Source: Nitrososphaera viennensis EN76 (GTDB taxonomy: Archaea > Thermoproteota > Nitrososphaeria > Nitrososphaerales > Nitrososphaeraceae). From it: a stretch of DNA of 32,000 bases. Below the pieces are notes generated by a model. The model saw nothing but the letters and a program-made list of their open reading frames with translations, was not told where the DNA came from and searched no databases. The stretch's first letter is position 1; every line of letters begins with the position of its first letter. A program made the translations under genes and the position numbers. The stretch is from assembly GCF_000698785.1 (NCBI RefSeq), contig NZ_CP007536.1, positions 330,001 through 362,000 on the forward strand. Direction: 5' to 3'. This document shows, one piece after another, positions 1,470 through 17,104 of the stretch.

Positions 1470-1493
1470 TGCATTGCACTGCACTATGCTGCA
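1470..1493. promoter_or_regulatory. TGCA-array motif (5 units), upstream of the P-II gene
   Basis: tgcattgcactgcactatgctgca. A TATA-like tttatcatat (minus strand, 1455-1464) lies between the motif and the ATG at 1433. Confidence 0.6.
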
Positions 1494-1494
1494 A

Positions 1495-1932
1495 TCATGA
1501 ATCTTCCAACATCTTGATTGAATCTCCGATCGATTTCTTGACCTCGCTTAGAATCTGAAGTACTTCTTTCTCATTGCTGTCTCCATTCTGCTTCTGTTCA
1601 AGCTCATTGTTGTAGTACTTCATCCACGAGTATGTATGTTGCAGGTTCTGAAAAAGTGGAAACGGCAGCAGGATCTGTTTCCCTCCAAGTATTGTTGCAT
1701 CCCACATGTCTGTAAAAAATGGCTTGAAGTCGCTGTACTTGACCGACTCTTCAATAAACCGTAGCTTGTTGTTAAGGTCGTTTTTGACAAAGTGGACTAT
1801 CTGCTGCCTGTTCCTATCTTCCTCTTTCCTGATCTTGCGCTTGTCGACTAAAGCTTCCACGTAAATGGCGCCGTATATTATAGCTGCAAGAAGCATCATT
1901 TCAACTAGGAGGGAATCCCACTGTATTGCCAA
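1495..1932 (-). CDS. Hypothetical protein with an N-terminal transmembrane helix
   Basis: 145-aa ORF with a TTG start at 1932 (alternative ATG at 1899). Hydrophobic segment LLVEMMLLAAIIYGAIYV. TATA-like ttaattataatc (minus strand, ~1955-1966) lies upstream. I recognise no family. Confidence 0.5.
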   Translation of the reverse strand: MAIQWDSLLVEMMLLAAIIYGAIYVEALVDKRKIRKEEDRNRQQIVHFVKNDLNNKLRFIEESVKYSDFKPFFTDMWDATILGGKQILLPFPLFQNLQHTYSWMKYYNNELEQKQNGDSNEKEVLQILSEVKKSIGDSIKMLEDS

Positions 1933-1975
1933 CGGTGCAAATATCCACAGGTTTGATTATAATTAACATAGGGTA

Positions 1976-1994
1976 CGCAGTGTATTGCTCTGCA
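1976..1994. promoter_or_regulatory. Degenerate TGCA-array motif in the divergent 1932(-)/2035(+) intergenic region
   Basis: cgcagtgtattgctctgca: four units in 5-bp phase (CGCA, TGTA, TGCT, TGCA). Confidence 0.4.
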
Positions 1995-2034
1995 AACATA
2001 TCCATTAAGAAGAAGATATTGTCATGCATGAGGC

Positions 2035-2472
2035 ATGAGTGCAGTAAGCGAAATAATGTGCTCCAAGGTTGTAACCATCGACGGCAACTCTGACCCTTCA
2101 GTGCTTGATGTTGTTGGAGAAATGGTCAAGAACAAGACGGGTGCCATCATAATCCTTGAAAATGGGAAGCCGTCGGGCATCATCACGGAGAGAGATATTC
2201 TCAAAAAGGTCTCTGCTCACAACAAAAAGCCGAAGGATGTGCAGGCCAAAAACATCATGTCATCGCCCTTGATAACCGTCAAGGCGTATGATTCTGTCGA
2301 TACAGCTGCCAAAGCTATGACAAAAAACAAAATAAAGAGGCTCCCAATCTTGGAGACCGACGGCTCGCTTGTAGGTATGATCTCTGCGACAGACATTGCC
2401 AAGAAGCTGGCCAAAATACTGGCAGACGACTATAACCGCTACCGCTCATTAAAGGGCGCCCTTGAACTCTAG
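2035..2472 (+). CDS. CBS-domain pair (Bateman module) protein
   Basis: 145 aa with two CBS repeats: IMCSKVVTID...GAIIILENGKPSGIITERDILKKV and IMSSPLITVKAYDSVDTAAKAMTKNKIKRLPILETDGSLVGMISATDI. Confidence 0.9.
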   Translation: MSAVSEIMCSKVVTIDGNSDPSVLDVVGEMVKNKTGAIIILENGKPSGIITERDILKKVSAHNKKPKDVQAKNIMSSPLITVKAYDSVDTAAKAMTKNKIKRLPILETDGSLVGMISATDIAKKLAKILADDYNRYRSLKGALEL

Positions 2473-2619
2473 TCAATAGCGCTCTCTCTTGGTGCCGGTA
2501 TGGCACGCTTGACATGCCCCGCACCACTCGCAGACTTTTGGAGTTTCTGCGCCACACTTGATACACATGGCCTCGGGGCTGTGCACCTTTACTTCATGAA
2601 AGCTGTGGGGCTGTCGCAT
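2473..2619 (-). CDS. Small Cys-rich (zinc-ribbon-like) protein, 48 aa, below the ORF-track size cut-off
   Basis: My translation is MRQPHSFHEVKVHSPEAMCIKCGAETPKVCEWCGACQACHTGTKRERY*, from ATG 2619-2617 to stop 2475-2473. It contains a CxxC...CxxCxxCxxC cluster. It sits 5 nt downstream of ORF 2625..2855 in a different frame. Confidence 0.4.
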   Translation of the reverse strand: MRQPHSFHEVKVHSPEAMCIKCGAETPKVCEWCGACQACHTGTKRERY

Positions 2620-2624
2620 TCTGG

Positions 2625-2855
2625 TCAAAATGAGTGCCTCCTCATCGTGCCCTTTGATTTTGCCTCAACTTTTTTCGGCAGGCTCCTTGCCAAGACCCTG
2701 TCTGTTACTCTTGTCTTTTGAAATTCACCGTTGTGACACCTGTTGGATTGCTCCATGAGCAGTTTTGGAGGCGTGTGATATTTCAAAGCCCGGTACACAG
2801 TGCATGGCAATGTGTTCCTCAGCCGTAAATAATCAGAAAAGGCAATCCCGGACAT
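2625..2855 (-). CDS. Hypothetical basic protein (76 aa)
   Basis: ORF on the same strand as its two neighbouring small genes. No recognisable domain. It could be the N-terminal part of a frameshifted gene continued by 2473..2619. Confidence 0.3.
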   Translation of the reverse strand: MSGIAFSDYLRLRNTLPCTVYRALKYHTPPKLLMEQSNRCHNGEFQKTRVTDRVLARSLPKKVEAKSKGTMRRHSF

Positions 2856-2887
2856 GGAGATGCCAGATCAAAGACGAGTAGTCCTAT

Positions 2888-3193
2888 TCATCGAAGCGGA
2901 AGCGTTCTGACAAAGCGGAGCGTGATGCCGCGTTTTTCATCCTTTTCAAGTATGCATGTTTCGTCCATAGTCATTGGAATTCTTGAAGTCCGCCTTCCGC
3001 ATGCAGGACAAGTTACCTGCATCCGTTTTCCATTCATGCAGGTTGCACACCAGTGGCAGTTGTCGCAAATTTCAAGTACAACATCGGGAAAGTTTTCGCC
3101 GGTAATCTTTCCTTGTCTTGCATTCAGATCCTCGTGGGGTAGAATCTGGCTTTCTGGCGATTCCTCTGCTCTTCGTTCTTTTCTAGGGGGCAT
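2888..3193 (-). CDS. Hypothetical zinc-ribbon protein
   Basis: 101 aa with CDNCHWCATC...TCPACGRR (paired CxxC motifs). It is divergent from the USP gene at 3285 and shares the motif at 3232-3246. Confidence 0.55.
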   Translation of the reverse strand: MPPRKERRAEESPESQILPHEDLNARQGKITGENFPDVVLEICDNCHWCATCMNGKRMQVTCPACGRRTSRIPMTMDETCILEKDEKRGITLRFVRTLPLR

Positions 3194-3231
3194 GATACTA
3201 ACTGCAACTCGTCATAGTTAAGCTTCAGGTA

Positions 3232-3246
3232 TGCAGTGCATTGCAG
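3232..3246. promoter_or_regulatory. TGCA-array motif (canonical 15-mer) between divergent genes 3193(-) and 3285(+)
   Basis: tgcagtgcattgcag, identical to 4201-4215, followed by A/T-rich gtaaatacta (3261-3270). Confidence 0.7.
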
Positions 3247-3284
3247 TATAGCCGTTTCTTGTAAATACTACTCTCTGTCAGATT

Positions 3285-3746
3285 ATGATCATGGTTTCAA
3301 GAATTCTCGTCCCTCACGACGGAACTGAAATGTCAGACAGGGCCCTCTCAAAGGCAACCGAGTTTGCCAAGGCGATGAAGTCGGAGATGGTAATAGTGCA
3401 TATTGTCGACAGCAGGTTCGTGCCGCCGAGTGCCACTCTTGGCTTCATAAGCGATAGAACATCGCTTGAGGGAGCCAAGACTGAGCTTGTCAGAATTCTA
3501 AAGTCCGGCGCAGAGCAAATGCTCAAGGAAAAAATGGCAAAGGTAAAGGCGGATGGCATAAGCGTTGACTTTATCCTAGGAGTGGGTTCTCCTGCTGAAG
3601 AGATAGTCACAATCGCGCGTAGCACCGGGTCAGACTTGATAGTGATGGGGAGCAGACAGCTGTCAAAAGCGGGTCTAGGGACTCTTGGCAGCGTTGCAAG
3701 AAAGGTGTCAGAGACTGCAGATTGCCCTGTGATGATAATACGTTGA
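3285..3746 (+). CDS. Universal stress protein (UspA family)
   Basis: RILVPHDGTEMSDRAL...VIVHIV...DLIVMGSRQLSKAGLGTLGSVARKVSETADCPVMII, the typical USP ATP-binding pattern G-x2-G-x9-GS. The start may be the second ATG at 3291. Confidence 0.9.
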   Translation: MIMVSRILVPHDGTEMSDRALSKATEFAKAMKSEMVIVHIVDSRFVPPSATLGFISDRTSLEGAKTELVRILKSGAEQMLKEKMAKVKADGISVDFILGVGSPAEEIVTIARSTGSDLIVMGSRQLSKAGLGTLGSVARKVSETADCPVMIIR

Positions 3747-3755
3747 TTTTTCTTA

Positions 3756-4145
3756 TTATGTCATGAACTTGATGTCGAGGGTCTTTATCTTCCATCCTTT
3801 CTTTTCGTCCGGCTTCAGGTCAAACGTAAAGCGGCCCTTTACCCTGTCGCCACGTTCAAAGGTAACAAGAGCAGTCAATTGGCCCTCCTCTTGACCATGC
3901 TTGGCCTTCAATATCTTGATCTTGCGGTGCATGTTTCTGTTTGCCATCATGGCTACTTTGAGAAATGGCTCGATTAATGACCTGCCATGCAGTCCCTGAG
4001 CTTTACTGAAGGGCTCATAAACTGTCGCGTCGTAGTCGAACAGGTCAAGAAGGCCATCCACGTCTTTGTCCTCTATCAGCTTGAAGAACCTGTACACGAT
4101 GTTCTCCCGGCTGTCGGGACCTTTGACGTTGCCTTTAGGCATCAC
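3756..4145 (-). CDS. NTF2/SnoaL-like fold protein
   Basis: 129 aa. ENIVYRFFKLIEDKDVDGLLDLFDYDATVYEPF... resembles the N-terminal pattern of SnoaL-like/NTF2 domain proteins. Confidence 0.65.
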   Translation of the reverse strand: MMPKGNVKGPDSRENIVYRFFKLIEDKDVDGLLDLFDYDATVYEPFSKAQGLHGRSLIEPFLKVAMMANRNMHRKIKILKAKHGQEEGQLTALVTFERGDRVKGRFTFDLKPDEKKGWKIKTLDIKFMT

Positions 4146-4200
4146 GGCATGCGTTCACCTTTGCAAACAATATGGCATATTGATAGATAACCTGTCGGAT

Positions 4201-4215
4201 TGCAGTGCATTGCAG
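4201..4215. promoter_or_regulatory. TGCA-array motif (canonical 15-mer) upstream of the NTF2-like gene
   Basis: tgcagtgcattgcag. A TATA-like ttatctatcaatat (minus strand, 4177-4190) lies between the motif and the start at 4145. Confidence 0.7.
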
Positions 4216-4228
4216 TTTATCTGAATGC

Positions 4229-4837
4229 CTATCTCAATACGACCTCTGCGATAGTGGTATTCGGCGTGACGTGTATCTCTGCCCTTACCTTTGCGAGGTT
4301 CTGAAATATCAAGGTGAGCAGTTCCTTTGTAAAGAGCGACCAGTTCTCGCCAAGCTCGTGCTGAACTACAAAGACATGCTTGCTTGAACCTTCTATCCTA
4401 TGATCGGCCTTTATGCCGGAGACCTTCATGTATTCTTCAAGAACCGAGAGCACCACCCATAGGTTGTAATGCTTTTTCATGAAAAGCACAGAGTCTTTCA
4501 TCAGATTAAAGGCGATCTGAGCAGCCTCTTTCACAATCAAGTCTCGGTACGTTTCTACTTCCTTTATGCCTCCTGCCTTTGCAGAAGCTATTGCCTTGTC
4601 AATGAGTGTCGAGAGCATCAGTTTTGGCACTGGCATCATGCCAATCTTGCTCTCGTACCTGTCCCACTCAGCATAGCGCTTGAGCACCTGGTTGACAAGG
4701 ACGTTGAGTGAAATTTCGCGCGTATCAGCCTCGCCCTGGAGCTCGTCTATTACCGACGAGTCGATCCTGAACGTGACGCTGCGAGTCTTTTTTGATTGGT
4801 AGGGAGAAGCTCCTTGGCCTTCAGAATCCGCAGACAT
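4229..4837 (-). CDS. Putative transcription regulator: N-terminal ribbon-helix-helix (CopG/Arc-like) domain plus an uncharacterised C-terminal domain
   Basis: RSVTFRIDSSVIDELQGEADTREISLNVLVNQVLKRY fits a beta-strand/helix/helix RHH pattern. The remaining ~130 aa are not recognised. Confidence 0.65.
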   Translation of the reverse strand: MSADSEGQGASPYQSKKTRSVTFRIDSSVIDELQGEADTREISLNVLVNQVLKRYAEWDRYESKIGMMPVPKLMLSTLIDKAIASAKAGGIKEVETYRDLIVKEAAQIAFNLMKDSVLFMKKHYNLWVVLSVLEEYMKVSGIKADHRIEGSSKHVFVVQHELGENWSLFTKELLTLIFQNLAKVRAEIHVTPNTTIAEVVLR

Positions 4838-4881
4838 ATGTATACAGTGCCAGCTGTGAAATTCGCCTTAAAAAGGCTTTT

Positions 4882-5337
4882 TCAATGCACCAAGAGGACA
4901 GGACATCTGGAAAGCTCGGCGACTTTGCGTGCAACACTTCCAAGCACCTTGAGTTTCGATATTCCTTTGAGCCCCTTGCTACCCATTACTATGAGGTCAG
5001 TCTCTTCCTTTCTTGCCGTCTCAAGTATCAGCAAAGCAGGGTCGCCCACAGAGTGCACAAGCTTCACGTCCAGGCCCTGTTTTTTGCAGTTTTCTACAAG
5101 CGATTCTAATGATCTGACAACATGTCCTTCAGACGACTTGACAAGAAGTTCTGCTGCCTCGTTTATAGCTGCATTCGCTGCCTCACTGTATGTATAGATG
5201 AGCGAAGGAAGGGCCGTGACAGTCAGAAACGTCACCCTTGAGCCTGACAACTTGGCAATATACACTGCATGTTCGGCCGCCCTTTCAGAGAACTGTGAGC
5301 CGTCGTATGGGACGAGTATTCTGTGGTACGTGTTCAA
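4882..5337 (-). CDS. Universal stress protein (UspA family)
   Basis: HRILVPYDGSQFSERAAEHAVYIAK...DLIVMGSKGLKGISKLKVLGSVARKVAELSRCPVLLV. The TTG start at 5337 overlaps the TGA of the upstream CBS gene. Confidence 0.9.
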   Translation of the reverse strand: MNTYHRILVPYDGSQFSERAAEHAVYIAKLSGSRVTFLTVTALPSLIYTYSEAANAAINEAAELLVKSSEGHVVRSLESLVENCKKQGLDVKLVHSVGDPALLILETARKEETDLIVMGSKGLKGISKLKVLGSVARKVAELSRCPVLLVH

Positions 5338-5891
5338 ATCTGTCTCAGGTCACCTTCCAAAAGGCCGCTTCCAATGTGCAGCCTGTCGACGTGCTTTGAG
5401 AGATCCTGTTTGCTCTCAAAGCCTGAACCACAGTACGGGCAGGTTATGTTGGCGCCCACACCTGTTTCGATCAGTCCTGCCTCGATACTCTTGCCCGGCA
5501 TGTTCCCCACAATTGACATGAGCGTTAGCAGGCCTATTATCTCTCCTTTTCTCTTGACTGGAAGTCTTCTGATTCCCTTATTCCTCATGATAAGAGTTGC
5601 TTCCAATACAGTTGCGGACTCGTCTACTGTAATGAGGGGAGTGCTCATGATCTCTTTGAGAGTTGTCTTGAAAGGTCCTTTGTTTTCCGCCACTACCTTG
5701 TAGAGAATGTCCCTCTCCGTGATAATCCCTACAAGTTCCTTTGTTCCCTTGTGAGAGACCAACACGCTTGAAAAGTCCTTTTTCTTCATTGCTTTTACAG
5801 CTTCTGCCACGCAGGATGTTTCGTCCATCACAAGCATGTCAGGAGTGGCCAATTCCCCAACTTTCCTTCCAAGATCTGCTTGCATGAGCAT
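5334..5891 (-). CDS. CBS-domain pair fused to a C-terminal C2H2-type zinc finger
   Basis: The start is set at ATG 5891 (MLMQADLG...). Two CBS repeats are followed by ITCPYCGSGFESKQDLSKHVDRLH (C-x2-C-x12-H-x4-H). Confidence 0.85.
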   Translation of the reverse strand: MLMQADLGRKVGELATPDMLVMDETSCVAEAVKAMKKKDFSSVLVSHKGTKELVGIITERDILYKVVAENKGPFKTTLKEIMSTPLITVDESATVLEATLIMRNKGIRRLPVKRKGEIIGLLTLMSIVGNMPGKSIEAGLIETGVGANITCPYCGSGFESKQDLSKHVDRLHIGSGLLEGDLRQI

Positions 5892-5916
5892 GGTACGACG
5901 AGGGAACGATATATCG

Positions 5917-5938
5917 TGCATGTATGCAGTGCAATGCA
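5917..5938. promoter_or_regulatory. TGCA-array motif between divergent CBS genes 5891(-) and 5985(+)
   Basis: tgcatgtatgcagtgcaatgca. It is flanked by TATA-like gatatatc (5908-5915, for the minus gene) and taaaatatt (5954-5962, for the plus gene). Confidence 0.65.
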
Positions 5939-5984
5939 CAATATTCCTAGATGTAAAATATTGCCGAAGGCCAAGCGTTCCTAT

Positions 5985-6485
5985 ATGGGTATAGAGTCAA
6001 TTCCAGTTTCAAGTATCATGACCAAGGGGGTCAGGACAGCAGGGGAGGATCAGACAATTAGGGCTGTGGCAGAGATGATGGACAAACACGGAATTGGGAG
6101 CGTAGTGATTACAGACAGCAAGGGCTTGCCATCGGGCATAATCACGGAGCGTGATATAGTCCGACTCGTGGGCTCTCCCAAAACCTCTCTTGCAGCCCTT
6201 GCAAAAAGCGTCATGAAAAAACCTGTCATAACGGCTGATGCCATGATGTCGCTAAAGGATGCACTGCAGACGATGCAGGCCAAGGACATACGAAGGCTGC
6301 CTGTCGTTGAAAAGGGTAAGATGATTGGTATTGTAACTGACAAGGATATTTTCCGGGCGATATTAAAGAACCAGGCATTGGTATCAAGCATAGTCAGCGA
6401 CAGCGTTCTTGTAGAGAACAGGCCAGTCTACGAAAGGCTTTCCGAATTCATGCTGAACGAGATATATCAGCCGGGTGGTAGATAA
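5985..6485 (+). CDS. CBS-domain pair protein
   Basis: The start is set at ATG 5985 (MGIESIPVSSIMTKGV...). Repeats are GIGSVVITDSKGLPSGIITERDIV and DIRRLPVVEKGKMIGIVTDKDIF. Confidence 0.85.
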   Translation: MGIESIPVSSIMTKGVRTAGEDQTIRAVAEMMDKHGIGSVVITDSKGLPSGIITERDIVRLVGSPKTSLAALAKSVMKKPVITADAMMSLKDALQTMQAKDIRRLPVVEKGKMIGIVTDKDIFRAILKNQALVSSIVSDSVLVENRPVYERLSEFMLNEIYQPGGR

Positions 6486-8389: not shown

Positions 8390-8403
8390 TGCACTGCCGT
8401 GCA
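8390..8403. promoter_or_regulatory. TGCA-array motif variant upstream of the HTH gene
   Basis: tgcactgccgtgca (TGCA, TGCC, TGCA in 5-bp phase). TATA-like actttattcc is at 8416-8425 and the ATG at 8445. Confidence 0.5.
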
Positions 8404-8444
8404 CTGGAATCTTGTACTTTATTCCATTGACTTCTCCATGTAAC

Positions 8445-8618
8445 ATGATGGCTAGCGAAAATAAAGAAGTCGTCAACGTTGATCCGTGGATACTAAAGCG
8501 GCTCGCAAGGATGTACGAGTCCGGCCTTTCAATAAAAGAGATTTCAGAACAGCTTGACATTGGCGCAAGGTCTGTGAAGAGGATCCTGGGACTACTAGGG
8601 TACGTTGTTGCGGACTAG
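8445..8618 (+). CDS. Small helix-turn-helix DNA-binding protein (57 aa)
   Basis: MMASENKEVVNVDPWILKRLARMYESGLSIKEISEQLDIGARSVKRIL. GLSIKEISEQLDIGARSVKRIL is a classic HTH (resolvase/sigma70-region-4-like). The start is set at ATG 8445 downstream of the TATA-like box. Confidence 0.65.
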   Translation: MMASENKEVVNVDPWILKRLARMYESGLSIKEISEQLDIGARSVKRILGLLGYVVAD

Positions 8619-8624: not shown

Positions 8625-9428
8625 GTGTTCAAGTTGCAAGACATCTCCATAAGGGAAGCGGCGCCTCACATTTTTAGACGGCCGTTACTGTATGTGAGCC
8701 CTTTTGATTCGATGCTTCAGGTGGCCACCTTTATCGCTACAGGGCCTCAGATCTACGTTGATGGTCTAGTTGTGCTGGAAGAAAACAAGCTTGCAGGCAG
8801 AATAGGGGGGTATGCCCTTGCCAACCACATTTTGAAAACTAGGGAAAGGTGGCTTGATGGCAAGGCTTTACAAATTATGGAAGCTCTTGAGCATGCGTTG
8901 CGGGAAGACGACTCCATTACAAAGGCGCTACGGGTCTTCATGGAGACTAGATTTGCATTCATGCCTGTGTCATCTAATGGCAAAATAGTAGCTTCTCTAT
9001 CTCTCAGGGACCTGATAAATTATGCCATGGGGTTGAAAGTTGAGGTACAAGGGTTGACATCTCCATTGCTAACTATCGATAATGACACAAGCGTATTGGA
9101 CGCACTTGAGTTCATGGTTGAAAAGGGTGTCCGAAATATTGTCTTTTTGAAGCAAGATGGCCCCTATGTCATCAACGACAGAAAGATCCTTGCATATCTG
9201 CTCCATTCTCAAACGCGAGATCTTATATCGCGCAGGGGCTTTGAAGTACTTGCAACTATAAAGGTGATAGGCATTGGCGCGCTCAAGGGAACATCTGTAG
9301 ACCTGAGGAGCGAGGCAGGTTCTGTGGCACATCTCTTTTCTAACATCGAAACATCGTGCCTGTTTGTGGGTAACAGGATACTAACGCCTTGGGATCTGGT
9401 GATGAAAGGTTCTGGTTTCATTAGTTAG
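8625..9428 (+). CDS. Divergent CBS-domain protein (about four degenerate CBS repeats)
   Basis: GTG start 6 nt after the HTH gene. Repeats include LRVFMETRFAFMPVSSNGKIVASLSLRDLINY and LDALEFMVEKGVRNIVFLKQDGPYVINDRKIL. Confidence 0.6.
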   Translation: MFKLQDISIREAAPHIFRRPLLYVSPFDSMLQVATFIATGPQIYVDGLVVLEENKLAGRIGGYALANHILKTRERWLDGKALQIMEALEHALREDDSITKALRVFMETRFAFMPVSSNGKIVASLSLRDLINYAMGLKVEVQGLTSPLLTIDNDTSVLDALEFMVEKGVRNIVFLKQDGPYVINDRKILAYLLHSQTRDLISRRGFEVLATIKVIGIGALKGTSVDLRSEAGSVAHLFSNIETSCLFVGNRILTPWDLVMKGSGFIS

Positions 9429-10482
9429 GCGTGATCACTGCTCTTCCTGTTATCTGGCCGCTCTTCAGTAGGTTGATTGCATCGTTGATGTCTTCGAGAC
9501 TGAATGTCTGAATCGTATGCTTTACTTTGCCTTGCCTTGCCAGCTCTATGACCTCACAAAGTTCGTTGTAGTTGCCCCATAGCGAGCCGGTTATCTGATA
9601 CTCGTTTATTACGGTAGGCATCAATGGCACACACACTTGGGCGCCAAAAAGGCCGACTACTGCAAGCACGCCTCCCTTTGAAAGCAGGCCTACTGATACG
9701 GAAATAGTATTTTCTGCGCCGACACAATCGACAATGACGTCGACGCCGCGGCCTTGCGTTATTTCCTTCACCTCTTTTCTTGTGCTCCCGGATAGTCTGA
9801 TTGCATGGTCGGCGCCGAGCTTCCTCGCAAACTCTAGCTTTTTGTCATTTCTGTCGATGGCTATTGTTGTTGAATTTGGCGCAAGCATCCGCGCATACTG
9901 AATTCCATACGATCCTAGCCCTCCAATACCCACTACTGCAATTGTAGTCCCAGGCACAAGCATGTGACGAAATCTCCTGATGGCGCGGTATGGAGTCAGA
10001 CCTGCGTCTGTCAGCGGCGCAAGCTCTTCCGGCTTCAGCCTTGTACCTGCTGCCACTTTTATCAAGAACCTGTAGGAAGGAACTGCAATGTATTGCGAGT
10101 ACCCGCCGTCGTATTGTGACAGCCCCGGCCATTTGGCAATAGGGCACATTTGCTCGTCGCCTCTTTTGCATATCTGACAGGAACCACAACCCCATCCGCC
10201 AAACACCGCCACTAGATCGCCTCTTTCAAACATCCCCTTTGGGACCGAGTCTCCTATCTCCTCTACCCAGCCTGCAACTTCGTGCCCCGGTATCTTTGGC
10301 AGCGCAAGCGGTATGGCTTCTTTCCATTCGCCGTTCATCAAGTGGAGGTCGCTATGGCACAGTCCGGCGCCGCCTACTTTTACTATTATTCCTTCACCTC
10401 TTGGGCTTGGCATCTTGACGGGTTCAACCACCAAGGGTCTTTGATACTCGTGGATTCTTGCTGAGAGCATGGTTTGAGCCAT
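9421..10482 (-). CDS. Zinc-dependent alcohol dehydrogenase (medium-chain dehydrogenase/reductase family)
   Basis: GAGLCHSDLHL (catalytic Zn Cys/His), PGHEVAG, the structural Zn cluster CGSCQICKRGDEQMC, and the Rossmann motif VVGIGGLG. Confidence 0.9.
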   Translation of the reverse strand: MAQTMLSARIHEYQRPLVVEPVKMPSPRGEGIIVKVGGAGLCHSDLHLMNGEWKEAIPLALPKIPGHEVAGWVEEIGDSVPKGMFERGDLVAVFGGWGCGSCQICKRGDEQMCPIAKWPGLSQYDGGYSQYIAVPSYRFLIKVAAGTRLKPEELAPLTDAGLTPYRAIRRFRHMLVPGTTIAVVGIGGLGSYGIQYARMLAPNSTTIAIDRNDKKLEFARKLGADHAIRLSGSTRKEVKEITQGRGVDVIVDCVGAENTISVSVGLLSKGGVLAVVGLFGAQVCVPLMPTVINEYQITGSLWGNYNELCEVIELARQGKVKHTIQTFSLEDINDAINLLKSGQITGRAVITPN

Positions 10483-10523
10483 ATATGATCCTGCGAGGCC
10501 ACATCATATTTCAAGAAATGGAT

Positions 10524-10542
10524 TGCAGTGCAACGCAATGTA
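10524..10542. promoter_or_regulatory. TGCA-array motif between the ADH gene (start 10482, minus) and small ORF 10588(+)
   Basis: tgcagtgcaacgcaatgta. It is flanked by TATA-like ttgaaatatgatg (minus strand, 10504-10516) and gaaataaaatt (10554-10564). Confidence 0.6.
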
Positions 10543-10587
10543 CTCTCTAGCTTGAAATAAAATTGCCAAGAACAGCTTGTGAGATCA

Positions 10588-10752: not shown

Positions 10753-10764
10753 TTTGCATTTTGA

Positions 10765-10856: not shown

Positions 10857-11314
10857 CTATCTGGTCACCAAGACAAGACAATGGGCGTGCGTGACTACTC
10901 CGCTAGCTACGTTTCCAAGCAAGGACTTCTTTATCCCTGTCTTCCCTTTTGTTCCGATTACGATCAAATCCGCTCTTTCTTTTGATGCATAATTTGCTAT
11001 GGTATCCGCCACGGATGCTACATCAAGAATAGTCTCTGCAGAGGCGATTTTGACGCCATCCTCCGCCGCCATGTCTCTTATCTTGTCATGCCATGCTTCT
11101 GCATATTTTTTGCCCGTTCTGTATAGCGAACAATCACAAGTCCTGCTGCTTTGTAATCGACGTATGGTGGGTTAACTACTGCATGCATGCAAATAATTTC
11201 TGCCATGGACATTTTGGCGATTTTGATGGCATACTTCGCAGCCTTGAAAGAAGAATCTGACCCATCTATTGGCATAAGTATCTTTTTCAACGGAATTTCT
11301 TCAGACAAATTCAC
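10857..11314 (-). pseudogene. Universal stress protein gene disrupted by a -1 frameshift in a homopolymer
   Basis: Two track ORFs together make one USP. ORF 11078..11314 gives ILMPIDGSDSSFKAAKYAIKIAK...; ORF 10857..11072 gives ...DLIVIGTKGKTGIKKSLLGNVASGVVTHAHCLVLV. The downstream frame already reads GKKYAEAWHDKIRDMAAEDG upstream of its first Met. The frames switch at the T6 run 11106-11111 (A6 on the coding strand). Confidence 0.75.
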
Positions 11315-12108
11315 TTCTCCTTTACGTACGCCTCAACCAAATCTCTGGCAGTGACCATTGCTACTATCTTTCCATACCTGGTGAGAGGTAGCCTCTTTAT
11401 CCTGTGTCTTAGCATGAGTTTGCCTGCTTCCTTGGCGCCTATTCCAAGTTTGGCGGTTATGACAGGAGTTGTGCAATAGCCTCCTACTTTCTCCAATCTG
11501 TCCACATTTTCTCCAAGAATCCTATTGAGCAAGTCACGCTCTGTAAACATCGCGTAAGGTGGTCCATTCACGCTTATGACTACGCTACCTATGCCTTTCT
11601 TCAGCATTGTTTTGACAGCACTCAATATTGTACTGTCGGGCTGCAGCGTGACTATCTTGTTTGCCATTGCACCCTCTATTGAGGGGTTAGACTTGCTCTT
11701 TAAAAGCGCCCTGACGATATCGGAGGCAGTTATTATACCGATCAGCCGGTCTGATACGCCGGTTCGCCTGTCCTTCTGAAAAACAAGCAACCTGGCTTTC
11801 TTTGATATCATGGTTCTCGCCGCTTCAAGCACTTCGGTACTGGGTGTCACTCTGGCAACCTTTTGAGTCAACACATACTTGATCTGCTTGTCCGGTATCG
11901 CCTTGTTCAGGGCCAGATGCAACAGCATTTCTCTTTCCGTTAAAATTCCTTCCACCTTTTCACCTTCCGTCACTACTATGTTGCCTATTCCCTTTAGCAA
12001 CATTGTCTGTACAGCATCCGAGAACCGAGTGTCAGGATGGGCTGTTATGACAGGAGAACTCATAAAATCGCCTACCTTTAACAGAGGGTAATCCGTTTGC
12101 AGCTTCAT
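11311..12108 (-). CDS. Tandem Bateman-module protein (four CBS domains)
   Basis: 265 aa with four repeats of the type GIGNIVVTEGEKVEGILTEREML, ARLLVFQKD...LIGIITASDIV, GIGSVVISVNGPPYAMFTERDLL and IKRLPLTRYGKIVAMVTARDLV. Its TGA overlaps the GTG start of the USP pseudogene. Confidence 0.9.
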   Translation of the reverse strand: MKLQTDYPLLKVGDFMSSPVITAHPDTRFSDAVQTMLLKGIGNIVVTEGEKVEGILTEREMLLHLALNKAIPDKQIKYVLTQKVARVTPSTEVLEAARTMISKKARLLVFQKDRRTGVSDRLIGIITASDIVRALLKSKSNPSIEGAMANKIVTLQPDSTILSAVKTMLKKGIGSVVISVNGPPYAMFTERDLLNRILGENVDRLEKVGGYCTTPVITAKLGIGAKEAGKLMLRHRIKRLPLTRYGKIVAMVTARDLVEAYVKEK

Positions 12109-12147: not shown

Positions 12148-12161
12148 TGCAGTGCATGACA
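12148..12161. promoter_or_regulatory. TGCA-array motif upstream of the four-CBS gene
   Basis: tgcagtgcatgaca. TATA-like ttatttaa at 12130-12137 lies between the motif and the start at 12108. Confidence 0.55.
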
Positions 12162-12833: not shown

Positions 12834-12966
12834 AGACTGGTTTGCAGTAAAATCCCGCATGGAATGAAATTTCATTTCTAGTTGGAAGCGCTTGACTGTT
12901 AGAATCCATTGCGACAGATGCATCTGGATTTGGTGTATGTGACTGAGGCTAAAAGTACCGCTGCTT

Positions 12967-12981
12967 TGCAGTATAGTGCAG
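12967..12981. promoter_or_regulatory. TGCA-array motif variant upstream of USP gene 13035
   Basis: tgcagtatagtgcag (TGCA, TATA, TGCA in 5-bp phase). TATA-like ttttaactta is at 13001-13010. Confidence 0.5.
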
Positions 12982-13034
12982 AGTATCCATTCCATACTGC
13001 TTTTAACTTACTAACAAACTCTAAGTGTTACGAC

Positions 13035-13484
13035 ATGGTGGAGATAAGCAGATTCAAAAAGGTGCTTGCAGCCGTCGATGGTTCTTTGGAATCTATGAAA
13101 GCCGTAGATACTGCAATTTCGATATCAAAAAAATACGATTCCTGGTTAACGGCCCTTTACGTTTTACATACGCCTTTTGGTGGAGATCTCTATCCGCAGC
13201 GTGTATCGTACAAAGAATTCCTTGATGATGTCAACAAAGAAACACGCGTTTGGTTAGAGGAGATTCAGAAGAAGGGTAAAGAGAACAACCTAGAGATAGA
13301 GACAAAAATGATAGAGACTTCAAAATCGACGCCGTCTGAAATCGTACGATACACCCAAGTAGACAAGACTGACTTGATTGTAATTGGTTCAAGAGGGAGA
13401 TCTGGACTTAAGAAAATATTGCTTGGTAGCGTTGCATCGAGTGTCCTGACGTATGCGCCATGCCCTGTAATGGTTGTAAGATGA
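13035..13484 (+). CDS. Universal stress protein (UspA family)
   Basis: The start is set at ATG 13035 (MVEISRFKKVLAAVDGSLESMKAVDTAI...). C-terminal DLIVIGSRGRSGLKKILLGSVASSVLTYAPCPVMVV. The longer track ORF from 12909 would include the promoter motif. Confidence 0.85.
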   Translation: MVEISRFKKVLAAVDGSLESMKAVDTAISISKKYDSWLTALYVLHTPFGGDLYPQRVSYKEFLDDVNKETRVWLEEIQKKGKENNLEIETKMIETSKSTPSEIVRYTQVDKTDLIVIGSRGRSGLKKILLGSVASSVLTYAPCPVMVVR

Positions 13485-13647
13485 TGCGCATATTCTATAC
13501 CATTGTCGCTACTGTGATTTTGCAGCTACCTTATGCAAGGTATATTTGTCTTCATTGTGAGTACTCCACCTTGAAACTACAAATGAATTGACGATTTGAC
13601 ATTCAGATGTTTAATTATTGTCTTATCATCACGGGTGGTTTGATTTC

Positions 13648-13669
13648 TGCAATGCAGTGTACACATGCA
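13648..13669. promoter_or_regulatory. TGCA-array motif upstream of the small membrane protein gene
   Basis: tgcaatgcagtgtacacatgca, followed by TATA-like aataaataat (13671-13680) and ATG 13706. Confidence 0.55.
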
Positions 13670-13705
13670 CAATAAATAATCACGCTGGATTCCCTTTCTT
13701 TGGTA

Positions 13706-13906
13706 ATGAGCAAAATCAATGGAGAAAATGTTGCAGGCGCTGCGTTCCTATTCCTGGCTAGCCTTTTCTTGGCTGCTGGAACCATAAATCCTGTAATTGC
13801 TTCAGTCGCAGTGGTCTTTTACATCCTTGCCGCAGCTGGCGCCGCATTGGTGCTTTTAGGATATAGGACCTACCGAAATGAAGTCCGGCCTACAACTGTA
13901 ATCTGA
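13706..13906 (+). CDS. Small membrane protein (two predicted TM helices)
   Basis: MSKINGENVAGAAFLFLASLFLAAGTINPVIASVAVVFYILAAAGAALVLLGY... ATG 13706 is preferred over the TTG at 13700. Confidence 0.5.
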   Translation: MSKINGENVAGAAFLFLASLFLAAGTINPVIASVAVVFYILAAAGAALVLLGYRTYRNEVRPTTVI

Positions 13907-13934
13907 TGCAGCTGCGCACCTGTTCATTCATTTT

Positions 13935-13948
13935 TGCAATGCACTGTA
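13935..13948. promoter_or_regulatory. TGCA-array motif (distal copy) upstream of the wHTH gene
   Basis: tgcaatgcactgta, near-identical to 13648-13661 (tgcaatgcagtgta), followed by TATA-like ggaaatatagc (13956-13965). Confidence 0.5.
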
Positions 13949-13970
13949 CACCTAGGAAATATAGCAAAGA

Positions 13971-14034
13971 ATGCTGATAGTGTTGTAGCTCGAAAAGCGA
14001 GCTGTGTGCCCATCCCTGCCGCGATTATCAGCAT
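13971..14034. other. Nested inverted repeats between the two motif/TATA units
   Basis: The outer arms are atgctgata (13971-13979) and tatcagcat (14026-34). The inner hairpin is agctcg-aaaag-cgagct (13987-14003). Confidence 0.4.
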
Positions 14035-14070
14035 ATCAACTCCATCGATCGGTGGGGATGGGCCTGATTC

Positions 14071-14089
14071 CGCAATGCTGTGTAATGCA
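14071..14089. promoter_or_regulatory. Degenerate TGCA-array motif (proximal copy) upstream of the wHTH gene
   Basis: cgcaatgctgtgtaatgca (four units in 5-bp phase), followed by TATA-like tttataatttt (14095-14105). Confidence 0.45.
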
Positions 14090-14129
14090 CACTCTTTATA
14101 ATTTTCGATCACGATCTAATCGTACATTT

Positions 14130-14552
14130 GTGAGCAAGAAAACCCAAGATAAGCAGATAGATCAGCAAGAGATAATGAAACTCCTAAAAGACCCAATTAT
14201 AGTCAGGATAGTAACAGTTCTGGACATCGCCAACCTTTCAGTTCTCGAACTGTTTGAATACGGGCTGACTAGGGAGGATGTAAACCATGCCATAGTCAGC
14301 GGCGTAATAGAGTTAGACCAAGCAAGGCTGCCAAAAGGCGAGCTTGATACATATGCTGAAGGTTTGCATGCTATTGCAGGAGACGTTTATTTCCAGCAAT
14401 TTCTAAGAAGCAAGGCCCGGCTCACACGGTTGGGACTCTTCCTTCTGGATTGCATTAAGAGCTGCCAGACAGAGCAGGACATAATTGAGAAAGTTATGGG
14501 GAGATTTGGTACGGGAATGTTTAGACCGCCGGAGCACCCGCACAAACCATGA
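14130..14552 (+). CDS. Putative winged-helix (ArsR-like) DNA-binding protein
   Basis: LLKDPIIVRIVTVLDIANLSVLELFEYGLTREDVNHAIVSGVIEL resembles an ArsR/wHTH N-terminus. The GTG start at 14130 lies 25-35 nt after the TATA-like box; an alternative ATG is at 14175. Confidence 0.55.
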   Translation: MSKKTQDKQIDQQEIMKLLKDPIIVRIVTVLDIANLSVLELFEYGLTREDVNHAIVSGVIELDQARLPKGELDTYAEGLHAIAGDVYFQQFLRSKARLTRLGLFLLDCIKSCQTEQDIIEKVMGRFGTGMFRPPEHPHKP

Positions 14553-14671
14553 CGCTCTTTGACTCCCCGGTTCCCTGACTATTGTCCCTAGCTGTACCAC
14601 CTTTGATCAGCTTCGCGTATATCAAAAGTGGATTGATTGATGACTTGCTCCTCTTTGTATTGCCCGACATC

Positions 14672-14691
14672 TGCATCTGCACTGCATTGCA
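14672..14691. promoter_or_regulatory. TGCA-array motif (four units) upstream of the RDD operon
   Basis: tgcatctgcactgcattgca. An A/T-rich ttctaatagga (14706-14716) precedes ATG 14730. Confidence 0.65.
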
Positions 14692-14729
14692 GTGAAATCC
14701 TTGTGTTCTAATAGGATAAGCTGGTAAAA

Positions 14730-15311
14730 ATGCACATGCCTCCAGATCCGAGTAGTCGACCTGATGGAGCCGAAAGGGGTCAACATCCAGCGCAACAACC
14801 AGAGATAATTTTAGCAAGGTGGAGCACAAGATTCTGGGCGTGGCTTGTTGATTTCCTGATAGTAAATGCCGGTTTGGGAATTATTTTCGGCATACTGTCC
14901 ATGCCGATGTGGCTTTACGGATTCACGAATCCCGGGATGATGTCGCCGATGTATGGTAGCGAATGGTGGAATAACGGTTTTGGTGGGCCATTTAGTTTTG
15001 CTATAAGCAGCCTGGTATTTTTTGCGTATTGGACATACATGGAAGCAAATCACAATGGTCAGTCGATAGGAAAGATGCTTCTGCGCATCAAAACTACGGA
15101 TCTTGAAGGCAAGCAAGCGAATACGACAAGCATCGCAATCTCTAGCTTTGGAAAGGCCTTTCTGCTGCCAATAGACGTATTCTTTGGTTGGATATTCACA
15201 AATGACAAGAGGCAGAGATTGTTAAGCAGAGCTGCAAATACTATCGTGATAAGAGCTACGGATGACGACACCGGAAGAGCACGGAGTAGTGCTAGATATC
15301 AAAAGGAGTGA
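14730..15311 (+). CDS. RDD-family membrane protein
   Basis: ARWSTRFWAWLVDFLIVNAGLGIIFG ... GQSIGKMLLRIKT ... RQRLLSRAANTIVI. The pattern and the three TM segments are typical of the RDD domain. Confidence 0.8.
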   Translation: MHMPPDPSSRPDGAERGQHPAQQPEIILARWSTRFWAWLVDFLIVNAGLGIIFGILSMPMWLYGFTNPGMMSPMYGSEWWNNGFGGPFSFAISSLVFFAYWTYMEANHNGQSIGKMLLRIKTTDLEGKQANTTSIAISSFGKAFLLPIDVFFGWIFTNDKRQRLLSRAANTIVIRATDDDTGRARSSARYQKE

Positions 15312-15315
15312 GACA

Positions 15316-15963
15316 ATGAGGATGAAAAGAGGACACATTGTGCTTGTATCCGGCGCTGTCCTGCTAGTCTCAGGAATAGCGATTTCTGTAGTATGGGGCG
15401 TTTCCTTTGCTGGCTCTTTTCTCCGAGATAACACCATTGTAGCAAAGACCACTATAGACGCGGGAAAATCAGTGGATGCAAGAACGGAAGTCAATCAACT
15501 GGATAGGCCTATTTCTATAGCAATTAGTATCGACAGATCTGGAGCGTTGCTACAACAGACATCCTCCTCCTCTGACATCAGGCTGAAAGAAACAGTGACA
15601 GATCCTAATGGAAGAGTCGTAAACAGCAATGAATTTGGAGGCACCTTCTTTACAAGTTTCAAGCCGCAAGAACCCGGTGTCTACACTGTTACTGTGTCAA
15701 ACCTTGGATCCAAACCTGTCACCGTCAGTGGAGTATTTGGCTACATCTCGTTCATAGACTCCGACGGGCAGCCCAACATGGAGGCTCTGGAGGTAGAAGG
15801 AGGAGGACTCGGTCTTGTAATTGCAGGCGGAGGAATGGCCGCTGCGGGAGTTCTAATACTGATTGTGGGAGCCATAATCACGGCGATTGATGGCAGAAAA
15901 GAGAAGCAAAGTGGCACGACAGCTACCACCGGCGAAAACGGCATCAGGTACCGGAAAGATTAG
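15316..15963 (+). CDS. Hypothetical bitopic membrane protein (N- and C-terminal TM helices around a beta-rich extracytoplasmic domain)
   Basis: The start is set at ATG 15316, 5 nt after the RDD stop. TM segments are IVLVSGAVLLVSGIAISVVWG and GLGLVIAGGGMAAAGVLILIVGAIITAI. Confidence 0.6.
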   Translation: MRMKRGHIVLVSGAVLLVSGIAISVVWGVSFAGSFLRDNTIVAKTTIDAGKSVDARTEVNQLDRPISIAISIDRSGALLQQTSSSSDIRLKETVTDPNGRVVNSNEFGGTFFTSFKPQEPGVYTVTVSNLGSKPVTVSGVFGYISFIDSDGQPNMEALEVEGGGLGLVIAGGGMAAAGVLILIVGAIITAIDGRKEKQSGTTATTGENGIRYRKD

Positions 15964-15980
15964 GAGTGCGCGAGTAGTGC

Positions 15981-16502
15981 ATGAAAGCAATCGTCCTCTT
16001 TGACACGCTCTTTGGAAATACCGAGAAAATAGCCCACTCTGTCACAAAGGGCCTGCAAAAGGCAGGGGTTGAAGCCGAATGCGTTAACATCAGAGCAGCA
16101 AATGTAGAAAAGCTTCATGAGTACGACCTTCTGGCATTGGGCGCGCCAACTCAATACTTTACGGCCTCCAAATCCATGAAGGACTTCTTGGACCGAATGG
16201 TGGAACTGGATTTGAAGGGCAGATGTAGTTTTGCTTTTGATACCAAGCTAGATTCTTTCATGGCTGGAAGTGGCGCCAAGTTCATCGAAAAGAGGCTCCG
16301 GGAATCTGGGCTTGACATTATCCGTAAACGTGGCTCTGCCCTGGTTATTGGGCAAAAGCAAAAGGAAGCAAAGAAGGATACGCTGAGTAATGCCACTGGA
16401 AAAGTCGTGCTCAAGGAGGGAATGGAGAATCAGTTTGAGGCAATTGGGGAGGAGCTTGGCGAACTCTTGCAAACTAGCAAGAGAAAGGTGGTGGGAGTGT
16501 GA
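15981..16502 (+). CDS. Flavodoxin-like fold protein
   Basis: MKAIVLFDTLFGNTEKIAHSVTKGL...YDLLALGAPTQYF is the classic flavodoxin FMN-binding N-terminal loop (S/T-x-x-G-N-T-E). Confidence 0.8.
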   Translation: MKAIVLFDTLFGNTEKIAHSVTKGLQKAGVEAECVNIRAANVEKLHEYDLLALGAPTQYFTASKSMKDFLDRMVELDLKGRCSFAFDTKLDSFMAGSGAKFIEKRLRESGLDIIRKRGSALVIGQKQKEAKKDTLSNATGKVVLKEGMENQFEAIGEELGELLQTSKRKVVGV

Positions 16503-16503
16503 C

Positions 16504-17031
16504 ATGATAGAAGAACGCAATAACCAATTTTCCGGCTGGGCAGAAAAGGAGTTTAATAGAGATTACCTGAAGCGCTCAGAAAGAGGGGGAGAGCTTGTAG
16601 GAGTGGCTGCAGTCGGGCTAATCGCGCTCTTTTTTTACATGCACCAAGCGTGGTCTACAGGCTTTTTCACGTCTCGCTTTGGTCCGACTGAGGCCTTTTT
16701 CTTCTATGGCTCGATTATGGCTGGCATAGTCGGGCCGCTTTTCAGATCTGCGACTGGGAGGAGAAACCTCTCCCGGCTTCCAGAGATGATAGCTTCGGTT
16801 TTGTGGATGGTTGGCGCAGTGTGGTTGCTAATAGTCTTCCCGTTCAACTTCGCACATCTGGGTGACGTGGTGCCAACCGTTCTGCGCTTCCTGCTAGCAT
16901 GGATTACAAATGACATTGCAAGAGTTCTCTTTACTCTTGGTGCACTGGGAGGGGTAGTCTTTACAATCGTGAACGCCAGTCTCTATTGGAAGGTCGATAG
17001 GTTACTGCGTCAGCATGATGAAGCACACTAG
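16504..17031 (+). CDS. Hypothetical integral membrane protein (about four TM helices)
   Basis: ATG 16504 lies 2 nt after the flavodoxin stop. Hydrophobic segments are VGVAAVGLIALFFYM, FFFYGSIMAGIVGPLF, IASVLWMVGAVWLLIVFPF and VLFTLGALGGVVFTIV. Confidence 0.6.
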   Translation: MIEERNNQFSGWAEKEFNRDYLKRSERGGELVGVAAVGLIALFFYMHQAWSTGFFTSRFGPTEAFFFYGSIMAGIVGPLFRSATGRRNLSRLPEMIASVLWMVGAVWLLIVFPFNFAHLGDVVPTVLRFLLAWITNDIARVLFTLGALGGVVFTIVNASLYWKVDRLLRQHDEAH

Positions 17032-17081
17032 GAAGCATGGCATTCTTTTGAGCATGGGGCTAGGAAAAATTGACAGTGCCC

Positions 17082-17104
17082 GTCCTGCACTGCAGGACAG
17101 TGTA
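17082..17104. promoter_or_regulatory. Palindrome plus TGCA-array variant upstream of the cupredoxin-like gene
   Basis: gtcctgca-c-tgcaggac is a perfect 8-bp-arm palindrome (17082-17098). In 5-bp phase the region reads TGCA, TGCA, GACA, TGTA (17086-17104). It could also be the terminator hairpin of the preceding gene. Confidence 0.4.

Follow-up and report, generated by a model that had tools for sequence, protein, structure and literature searches.

The window analysed here is a 32,000-nucleotide stretch of the Nitrososphaera viennensis EN76 genome (contig NZ_CP007536.1, positions 330,001 to 362,000), corresponding to about 322.6-354.6 kb of CP103305.1 and containing the genes NVIE_003910 onwards; positions given below are those of the window unless a locus is named. 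Its left part is a low-GC island (GC content ~0.46-0.47 compared to ~0.54-0.55 in the flanks, with a sharp step near 17.9 kb), in which short arrays of the tetramer TGCA recur between the genes. Pfam matches, which confirm the first-pass gene list, identify in this island a P-II gene, six universal stress protein (USP) genes, one of which is frameshifted, and five CBS proteins, one of them fused to a C2H2 finger. Further members are SnoaL-like, amino-acid permease, small helix-turn-helix (HTH), ADH, RDD, flavodoxin and cupredoxin genes. The right flank has a housekeeping character, with genes for S-adenosylmethionine synthetase, CbiD/CbiG and glycosyltransferases.

A first-pass annotation of the window had listed 14 TGCA arrays, and all 14 strings were recovered exactly, position for position, and in non-coding DNA according to our own gene model. 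For counting, a strict array was defined as at least three units in 5-bp phase, each unit matching TGCA in at least three of four positions and at least two units matching perfectly. The scan covered 41.9 kb, i.e. the window and 9.9 kb to its left; together with a 20.6-kb paralogous locus (L022), ~62 kb of the 2.52-Mb genome were examined. Ten strict arrays were found, where ~0.3 would be expected from first- and third-order Markov simulations. All ten are fully intergenic, while intergenic DNA makes up 12.6% of the sequence (binomial probability ~1e-9), and all ten are located inside the low-GC island. Similarly, TGCANTGCANTGCA with at most one mismatch has 11 matches compared to 0.22 expected from dinucleotide shuffles, and none of 100 shuffles reached 11. 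The arrays are therefore over-represented and, as had been claimed, intergenic, and they are not equally frequent in coding or control DNA. An unbiased count of intergenic 8-mers is headed by four GCAnTGCA words, and distances between TGCA tetramers have maxima at 5 (17 pairs) and at 10 (10 pairs). Single TGCA sites are frequent throughout the window (8.3 per kb), and only the phased arrays are promoter-specific. Nine of the 14 listed instances are strict, and the remaining five (starting at 1976, 12148, 12967, 14071 and 17086) are degenerate; those at 1976, 12148 and 17086 have the correct promoter geometry and/or orthologous arrays in other species. The absence of comparable arrays to the right of ~17.2 kb was borne out, as there are no strict arrays in that part. 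One weak array-like string, TGCAATGCCATCCA, is present where the island ends on the right (17661-17674). It is situated downstream of two genes that converge, which is not a promoter position, and may be a chance occurrence or a relic.

Table 1. TGCA arrays and associated features of the N. viennensis island (RHH, ribbon-helix-helix; wHTH, winged helix-turn-helix; ORF, open reading frame; aa, amino acids)
Position	Strand	Feature	Sequence	Context
L014:9432-9450 (438-456 nt left of window position 1)		extra 4-unit array	TGCTTTGCAGTGCAGAGCA	40 nt upstream of hsp20-2 (NVIE_003900)
1470..1483		array	TGCATTGCACTGCA	promoter of P-II-like gene (1089-1433, minus); array end to ATG 36 nt
1976..1994		degenerate 4-unit array	CGCAGTGTATTGCTCTGCA	middle of divergent hyp145/CBS145 region; 43 and 40 nt to starts
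3232..3250		array	TGCAGTGCATTGCAGTATA	middle of divergent Znf101 (2888-3193, minus)/USP (3285 or 3291-3746, plus) region; invariant in six species
3262..3267	+	conserved TATA-like box of USP promoter	TAAATA	begins 29 nt before conserved ATG 3291
3756..4145	-	SnoaL/NTF2-like gene		always downstream neighbour of the RHH gene; always array-preceded
4201..4214		array	TGCAGTGCATTGCA	directly after RHH gene stop codon, upstream of SnoaL-like gene
4229..4837	-	NVIE_003980, candidate regulator, 202 aa		N-terminal RHH (~residues 17-65) and C-terminal H-NOX/V4R/Bet3-like fold
5925..5938		array	TGCAGTGCAATGCA	middle of divergent CBS-C2H2 (5334-5885/5891, minus)/CBS (5985-6485, plus) region
8390..8408		array	TGCACTGCCGTGCACTGGA	promoter of small HTH gene (8445-8618), 36 nt to ATG
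10519..10542		5-unit array	TGGATTGCAGTGCAACGCAATGTA	between adh1 (9421-10482, minus; 36 nt) and 54-codon ORF from 10588 (45 nt)
12148..12161		degenerate array	TGCAGTGCATGACA	promoter of 4xCBS gene (11311-12108, minus), 39 nt to ATG
12967..12981		weak candidate	TGCAGTATAGTGCAG	upstream of USP gene ending 13484; atypical geometry; comparison gives no support
13648..13661		array	TGCAATGCAGTGTA	promoter of small membrane protein gene (13700/13706-13906)
13935..13948		array	TGCAATGCACTGTA	followed by TATA-like GGAAATATAGC
14071..14089		degenerate array	CGCAATGCTGTGTAATGCA	40 nt upstream of GTG (~14130); overlapped by long wHTH ORF (14004-14552)
14678..14696		array	TGCACTGCATTGCAGTGAA	promoter of RDD/flavodoxin operon (14730 onwards)
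17086..17104		degenerate array	TGCACTGCAGGACAGTGTA	upstream of cupredoxin gene 17154-17615

The element is conserved across the Nitrososphaeraceae and is not peculiar to the N. viennensis genome. Syntenic clusters from N. gargensis (L020) and from five other genomes or metagenome contigs (L023, L026, L027, L028 and L030) contain 12, 8, 7, 8, 13 and 8 strict arrays per ~20 kb, respectively, at orthologous promoters. Together with N. viennensis this amounts to 66 arrays in 142 kb, compared to ~1 expected. No strict array was found in 83 kb of same-genus control DNA, which comprised both island flanks, L022 (the paralogous CBS-USP-RDD cluster of N. viennensis), the orthologous cluster L025, and L029, a housekeeping thermosome locus. 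When three orthologous intergenic regions were aligned, the conserved blocks were the array and the TATA boxes, with 34 of 42 array columns invariant compared to 90 of 360 other columns, at a protein identity across species of 64-93%. Conservation in the orthologous promoters of relatives, on which the first-pass annotation had let its regulon depend, is thus observed.

Several individual sites illustrate this conservation. Orthologues of the USP encoded at 3285-3746 are common in Nitrososphaera, the array at 5925..5938 lies within a 50-nt block conserved in five species, and the array variant at 8390..8408 is kept in L023 and L026. Degenerate sites also have counterparts, i.e. a strict array upstream of the hyp145 orthologue of N. 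gargensis (L020:3106), an array at L023:15951 orthologous to that at 12148..12161, and a strict array 38 nt from the ATG of the cupredoxin orthologue of L028. Further genes preceded by arrays in the relatives encode PAC2, HSP20, an M50 peptidase-CBS protein, a multicopper oxidase and an island-linked thermosome. The thermosome paralogue and the proteasome-assembly gene PAC2 adjoin the cluster, with an array, at L020:1315 (N. gargensis), L023:6810 and L030:9943, and no array is present at the housekeeping thermosome-alpha locus (L029:9850-10000).

The motif had originally been described as a tandem (TGCA-N)n repeat. The 5-bp phase of this description holds, but the element is not a plain tandem repeat; rather, it is a dyad-symmetric site of 14-19 bp, [TGCA]-S-TGCA-W-TGCA-S-[TGCA] (S, G/C; W, A/T), with alternating spacers and its central A/T spacer at -49 from the start codon. 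Three units are present in 39 of the 66 arrays, four in 25 and five in two. One G/C and one A/T spacer occur in 31 of 32 perfect triple arrays, and the spacer is A/T at -49 in 22 of 23 cases, G/C at -44 in 12 of 16 and G/C at -54 in 8 of 12. The polarity of asymmetric spacers shows no orientation bias relative to gene direction (15 WS versus 14 SW). Counted from the ATG, the preferred TGCA start positions in 73 promoters with arrays are -58, -53, -48 and -43 (15, 25, 24 and 13 promoters, respectively), and AT content is highest at -30 to -26. The TATA-like box is found at ~-30 to -24, and the site centre lies ~22 bp, or about two helical turns, upstream of it. In N. viennensis, 14 of 19 array-gene pairings have 33-46 nt between the end of the array and the ATG; in the seven species this distance has its mode at 39 and its bulk at 38-46. 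Where the region between divergent genes measures 91-99 bp, a single array lies midway between the two starts, in agreement with the earlier suggestion that a strand-symmetric array serves divergent gene pairs. Beside the array at 1470..1483 an additional, out-of-phase TGCA is present at 1490-1493.

The array is tied to the TATA box rather than to the ATG, since the SnoaL promoters keep the array-to-TATA spacing despite their longer leader; at the array 4201..4214, the TATA-like TTATCTAT follows 10 nt further on. In the other promoters the TATA-like box is placed for transcripts starting at or beside the ATG, from which we infer that the mRNAs of array promoters are leaderless. The -49 register would then also be the distance from the transcription start, and the site would end 2-5 bp upstream of the transcription factor B (TFB) recognition element (BRE), on the same helical face as the TATA-binding protein (TBP) and TFB. 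The wHTH gene probably starts at the GTG at ~14130, which fits the array geometry of the regulon. The array at 13935..13948 would in that case have no obvious target, and it may be a distal site of the wHTH gene or belong to an unannotated transcript. A promoter-proximal W-TCC(T/A) extension of the arrays is common (5939-5950, 14697-14703, 10514-10518 and many sites of L020 and L026-L028), with examples such as TGCAtTCCT, TGAAaTCCT and TGCAaTCC, and a longer block, TGCAcAAcATTCCTAG, is common to a subset of CBS-gene promoters. This extension may represent a degenerate extra unit, a BRE, or the site of a second factor.

We consider it probable, at roughly 80%, that the TGCA arrays are the predicted site of one sequence-specific regulator, and that they define a conserved stress regulon of ~12-15 promoters in the low-GC cluster (NVIE_003900 to ~NVIE_0042xx) and in its relatives. 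That the arrays are the shared cis-element of one uncharacterised regulon had been put forward from the window alone, and is now supported by the fixed promoter position, the orthologous conservation and the array-free controls. The array at hsp20-2 implies that the regulon, together with the low-GC segment, begins ~0.5-3.5 kb to the left of the window, near VIT1/HSP20.

A candidate for the regulator is encoded among the arrays. NVIE_003980 combines an N-terminal ribbon-helix-helix (RHH) domain with a C-terminal domain of H-NOX/V4R/Bet3-like fold, and is the most conserved protein of the island (78-93% identity across islands, compared to 52-80% for its neighbours). All islands that bear arrays contain its gene, and array-free loci lack it. 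Scanning of metagenomes with the family alignment identified 80 loci encoding this family (58-93% identity, GC content 0.31-0.49), which contain 124 strict arrays in 425 kb (0.29 per kb), typically with an array directly after the stop codon of the RHH gene. This support is circumstantial, and we give even odds that NVIE_003980 is the factor predicted to bind the arrays.

In more AT-rich genomes the motif degenerates to TGTA-a-TACA-g-TGCA-t-TCC. Genome GCA_050043595.1 (26% GC; L031) has the same neighbourhood of P-II, CBS, RHH homologue (53% identity), SnoaL-like, USP, PAC2 and VIT1 genes; a reduced motif, cATTGTACTC, recurs upstream of several of its genes, and TGTAtTGCAtTACAaTGTA is found 40 nt upstream of a CBS start. 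The ...aTGTACTCTC ending of this motif is also present in the window, at 10537-10547 and 17099-17108.

The NVIE_003980 family is large, with 1419 word-indexed homologues and 908 representative clusters, none with a Pfam assignment. Matches to RHH-type Pfam families were obtained when 72 members were scanned singly (CopG_antitoxin 29, HicB 14, BrnA 4, RHH_1 2 and FitA 1). Sequence searches with NVIE_003980 and with the wHTH protein against PDB and NCBIfam returned nothing useful beyond marginal RHH antitoxin matches. The AlphaFold2 model of NVIE_003980 (pLDDT 91) has a strand-helix-helix N-terminus, and its C-terminal domain modelled alone reached a pLDDT of 93 and a pTM of 0.86. In Foldseek searches this domain resembles H-NOX domains (query-normalised TM 0.49-0.61, root-mean-square deviation 4.2-5.0) at the level of the fold only, and the same holds for the V4R sensor domains of PoxR/MopR/DmpR (TM 0.50-0.58) and for TRAPP Bet3/TPC6. 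Residue His160 is invariant in the family alignment, in which no Y-x-S-x-R haem motif was seen.

Several observations weigh against a regulon of arrays read by NVIE_003980. None of the 72 family members has a Pfam HNOB or V4R sequence match, and the NVIE_003980 sequence contains no cysteine, while the zinc ligands of V4R domains are Cys and Glu. The promoter of the RHH gene itself carries no array. The period of 5 bp differs from the 7-11 bp of characterised RHH arrays and places neighbouring boxes on opposite sides of the helix, with boxes 1 and 3 being 10 bp apart. The island-restricted status of the arrays is a sample-based one, resting on ~62 kb of the genome. Co-regulation under copper stress, which had been suggested as a check, was not found, as the island genes respond incoherently to copper limitation (log2 fold changes of -1.0 to +2.45); copper limitation is therefore not the signal.

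Finally, the island encodes other candidate DNA-binding proteins, i.e. the CBS-C2H2 protein (5334-5885), the 57-aa HTH protein (8445-8618), the wHTH protein (~14130-14552) and the Zn-ribbon protein (2888-3193). We regard it as rather unlikely, though worth serious attention, that one of these, or a regulator encoded elsewhere, reads the arrays. All four have arrays in their own promoters, which would permit autoregulation; the CBS-C2H2 protein is present in all array-bearing islands, and the HTH protein is conserved in four of the five islands. A single zinc finger could read a unit of 4-5 bp, as exemplified by the GAGA factor. However, some islands that have arrays lack the HTH, wHTH and Zn-ribbon genes, and all four proteins are less conserved (43-75% identity) than the RHH protein. 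The CBS-C2H2 protein as binder is also weakened by its homologues in 12 distant AT-rich Nitrososphaeraceae loci (L001-L012), which are poor in arrays. These contain three strict arrays in 153 kb (0.02 per kb), one of which spans two of four one-mismatch matches, and none lies at the promoters of the CBS-zinc-finger genes themselves. Among AT-rich loci, array density is 0.256 per kb with the RHH gene, compared to this 0.02 per kb with a CBS-zinc-finger homologue but no RHH gene.

The fixed spacing between array and TATA box could also be taken to mean that the array is an extended core-promoter element read by an alternative TFB or TBP paralogue, without a dedicated regulator, and ammonia-oxidising archaea have 4-11 TFB copies (PMC7554672). 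The position argues against this, since the arrays occupy -40 to -62, further out than the BRE, and are distinct from the AT-rich box at -30 to -24. Archaeal core elements lie at about -24 to -38 relative to the transcription start and occur at most promoters; the 83 kb of control DNA contained no arrays. In archaeal pre-initiation complexes it is the BRE that is contacted by the helix-turn-helix of TFB. In addition, dyad symmetry and the sharing of one site by divergent promoters are unexpected for a directional core element, and no TFB or TBP gene is found in any of the islands. We consider this explanation improbable.

Even less credible is an origin without any dedicated factor, in which ancestral promoter copies were spread by USP and CBS duplication, or in which flexible DNA rich in TG/CA steps aids promoter opening or bending. 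Many USP and CBS paralogues are indeed present in the island, the arrays at 3232 and 4201 are identical 15-mers, and TGCAcAAcATTCCTAG is shared by a subset of CBS promoters. However, arrays also precede members of unrelated families (HSP20, P-II, ADH, cupredoxin, RDD, thermosome, PAC2, multicopper oxidase and M50 peptidase), and the flanks are unrelated while the array itself is invariant across species. The alternating spacer rule and the -49 register indicate sequence-specific reading, and the paralogous CBS-USP-RDD cluster of the same genome has no arrays. A role at the nucleic-acid level, as hairpin or cruciform, RNA element or cluster of restriction-modification (TGCA) sites, can practically be discarded although self-complementary TGCA allows short stems to be drawn, because the inferred transcription starts lie downstream of the arrays, isolated TGCA sites abound everywhere in the window, single-strand folds of four arrays are no better than those of shuffles (z of +0.5 to -1.8), and Rfam gave no match in the window.

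Returning to a dedicated regulator of the RHH type, we propose that one RHH dimer would occupy each self-complementary TGCA box, with its two-fold beta-ribbon placed on the box as in CopG. Boxes 1 and 3 would be bound on one face of the helix and boxes 2 and 4 on the other, adjacent dimers could bind cooperatively via their C-terminal domains, and a small ligand in the H-NOX/V4R-like pocket might switch DNA binding. The label operator-like, under which the arrays were first listed, presumes repression, while a position just upstream of BRE and TATA box suits an activator at least equally. Activation by recruitment of TFB/TBP is slightly favoured, because the site lies upstream of the BRE, its spacing is strict and divergent promoters share one site. 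Repression by spreading over the BRE and blocking it is nearly as likely, as most bacterial RHH proteins are repressors, the candidate factor is abundant while its targets are silent, and the arrays often continue towards the BRE as degenerate W-TCC. In published proteomes NVIE_003980 is constitutively abundant, USPs are ~ten-fold lower and HSP20-2 is undetected (PMC12542715 supplement). The gene content, i.e. six USPs, five CBS proteins, HSP20, P-II, cupredoxins, ADH and flavodoxin, with thermosome and PAC2 in relatives, suggests energy, oxygen, nitric oxide (NO) or proteotoxic stress as the signal.

The pairing of the RHH gene with the SnoaL/NTF2-like gene is conserved in every island. The SnoaL/NTF2-like protein may be a partner or modulator of the regulator, an idea based on SnoaL_2 domains that extend some ECF sigma factors as regulatory parts (a weak NCBIfam match). 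Other features of the locus include a split USP gene (10857-11314, minus strand) with ORFs of 78 and 71 aa in different frames, 5 nt apart (NVIE_004090 and NVIE_004100), which is probably a frameshifted pseudogene. Between a CBS gene and the Zn-ribbon gene, 415 bp (2473-2887) are without a convincing gene and without an array in N. viennensis; the matching spacer in relatives has an array at L023:9505 and L026:9563, and a small ORF in L026. The housekeeping flank of this non-methanogenic archaeon encodes a three-domain S-adenosylmethionine synthetase of bacterial/eukaryotic type (25346-26488) and an MtrA-like protein (20836-21399). Several families of the island (UspA, CBS, Zn-ribbon, CopG/RHH, P-II and plastocyanin-like) match the cargo of thaumarchaeal integrated elements (Krupovic et al. 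2019, PMC6563490). As to signs of such an element at this locus, no tRNA, no integrase among the scanned proteins and no att site were seen, and the cluster is conserved across the genus.

Judged by sequence comparison, the arrays are a real, conserved and apparently undescribed regulatory site. They belong to a stress regulon of soil ammonia-oxidising archaea for which a plausible regulator can be named. A limited literature search, which is not proof of novelty, found no description of the motif or of an archaeal RHH-V4R/H-NOX regulator, in line with the first-pass annotation, to which no archaeal transcription-factor site of this architecture was known. Almost no specific transcription factor-operator pairs or regulons of ammonia-oxidising archaea were found in the literature searched, and genetic manipulation of these organisms is not known to be routine so far. 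Nitrification in soil is driven by ammonia-oxidising archaea, and the array regulon would be among the few defined for them. It offers a sharply defined cis-element with a fixed geometry, ~12-15 target promoters, and NVIE_003980 as a candidate regulator that carries a ligand-binding-like domain, so that control of a large USP/CBS/HSP20 stress gene set in soil ammonia oxidisers becomes a directly testable question. The array promoters would also provide indirect evidence for leaderless transcripts.

Among known systems, the closest architectural parallels are the box-array operators of RHH proteins, i.e. CopG of pMV158, ParG, MetJ and omega of pSM19035, in which short boxes are likewise repeated two to five times in a fixed phase (three to five units here). 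In the CopG co-crystal the operator includes two TGCA motifs, and arrays of 4-bp boxes are covered by dimers of ParG (PMC3413123). The two CopG motifs, the same tetramer as in the arrays, lie in a 13-bp pseudosymmetric element; ParG reads ACTC boxes with 4-bp spacers, MetJ tandem 8-bp met boxes and omega 7-bp heptads. The self-complementary box of the arrays suits a two-fold symmetric RHH dimer, and an RHH protein of the CopG-like Pfam families is encoded beside the sites. There are also clear differences. The present site is archaeal and lies upstream of BRE and TATA box, whereas the RHH comparators bind over the -35/-10 promoter. CopG is a bare RHH protein of 45 residues, whereas NVIE_003980 carries an additional H-NOX/V4R-like domain of 140 residues. 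The comparators mainly control their own operon, whereas the arrays are a candidate multi-promoter regulon for which array binding is predicted. If this assignment is true, the RHH repertoire gains a 5-bp box period and an H-NOX/V4R-like effector domain.

TGCA boxes are also found in the BzdR operators of the Azoarcus PN promoter, TGCA(N6)TGCA and TGCA-C-T(G/C)(C/G)A, to which several dimers of a ligand-responsive regulator bind cooperatively (PMC6678401). These boxes have 10-bp and 5-bp phases, like the arrays. However, BzdR belongs to the bacterial HTH-XRE proteins and carries a shikimate-kinase-like domain. It represses a single operon, through sites overlapping both the transcription start and the -35/-10 region. 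In N. viennensis itself, an analysis of upstream regions has yielded two motifs related to copper limitation, TTCSGSMTTTGWACYANT and RATTTAAABATAGATTTAAATAATAAS, located between -35 and -70 relative to the start codons (Reyes et al. 2020, PMC7785015). They share with the arrays the organism and the upstream location, but sequences and gene sets differ and the island genes are not coherently copper-regulated, and identity of the motifs was therefore rejected. With regard to position, archaeal activators that recruit TBP/TFB, such as Ptr2 and TFB-RF1, usually sit immediately upstream of BRE and TATA box. Their sites resemble the arrays in being palindromic and at a fixed spacing, while protein families (Lrp/AsnC and wHTH) and motifs differ.

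In gene content, the island is similar to the DosR regulon of Mycobacterium tuberculosis, which includes several USPs, alpha-crystallin/HSP20, a CBS-pair protein and redox carriers and is silent in normal growth. DosR itself belongs to the LuxR-type response regulators, has a 20-bp motif and is controlled by the haem-based sensor kinases DosS and DosT; its regulon is induced by hypoxia or NO. The haem-based sensor upstream of DosR may be set beside the H-NOX-like fold of NVIE_003980, by way of analogy only; the proteins are not homologous, the motifs differ, and the island contains neither a LuxR-type regulator nor the DosR motif. We nevertheless put forward, as a speculative extension with little probability attached, that NVIE_003980 founds an archaeal one-component family and is a counterpart of DosR. 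Its H-NOX/V4R-like pocket with the invariant His would sense a gaseous or redox ligand, for instance O2, NO or a metabolite reflecting the energy state, and its RHH domain would switch a dormancy-type regulon via 5-bp-phased TGCA operators. Should this DosR-like role be true, it would provide a first handle on how obligate aerobic ammonia oxidisers survive anoxia or loss of substrate.

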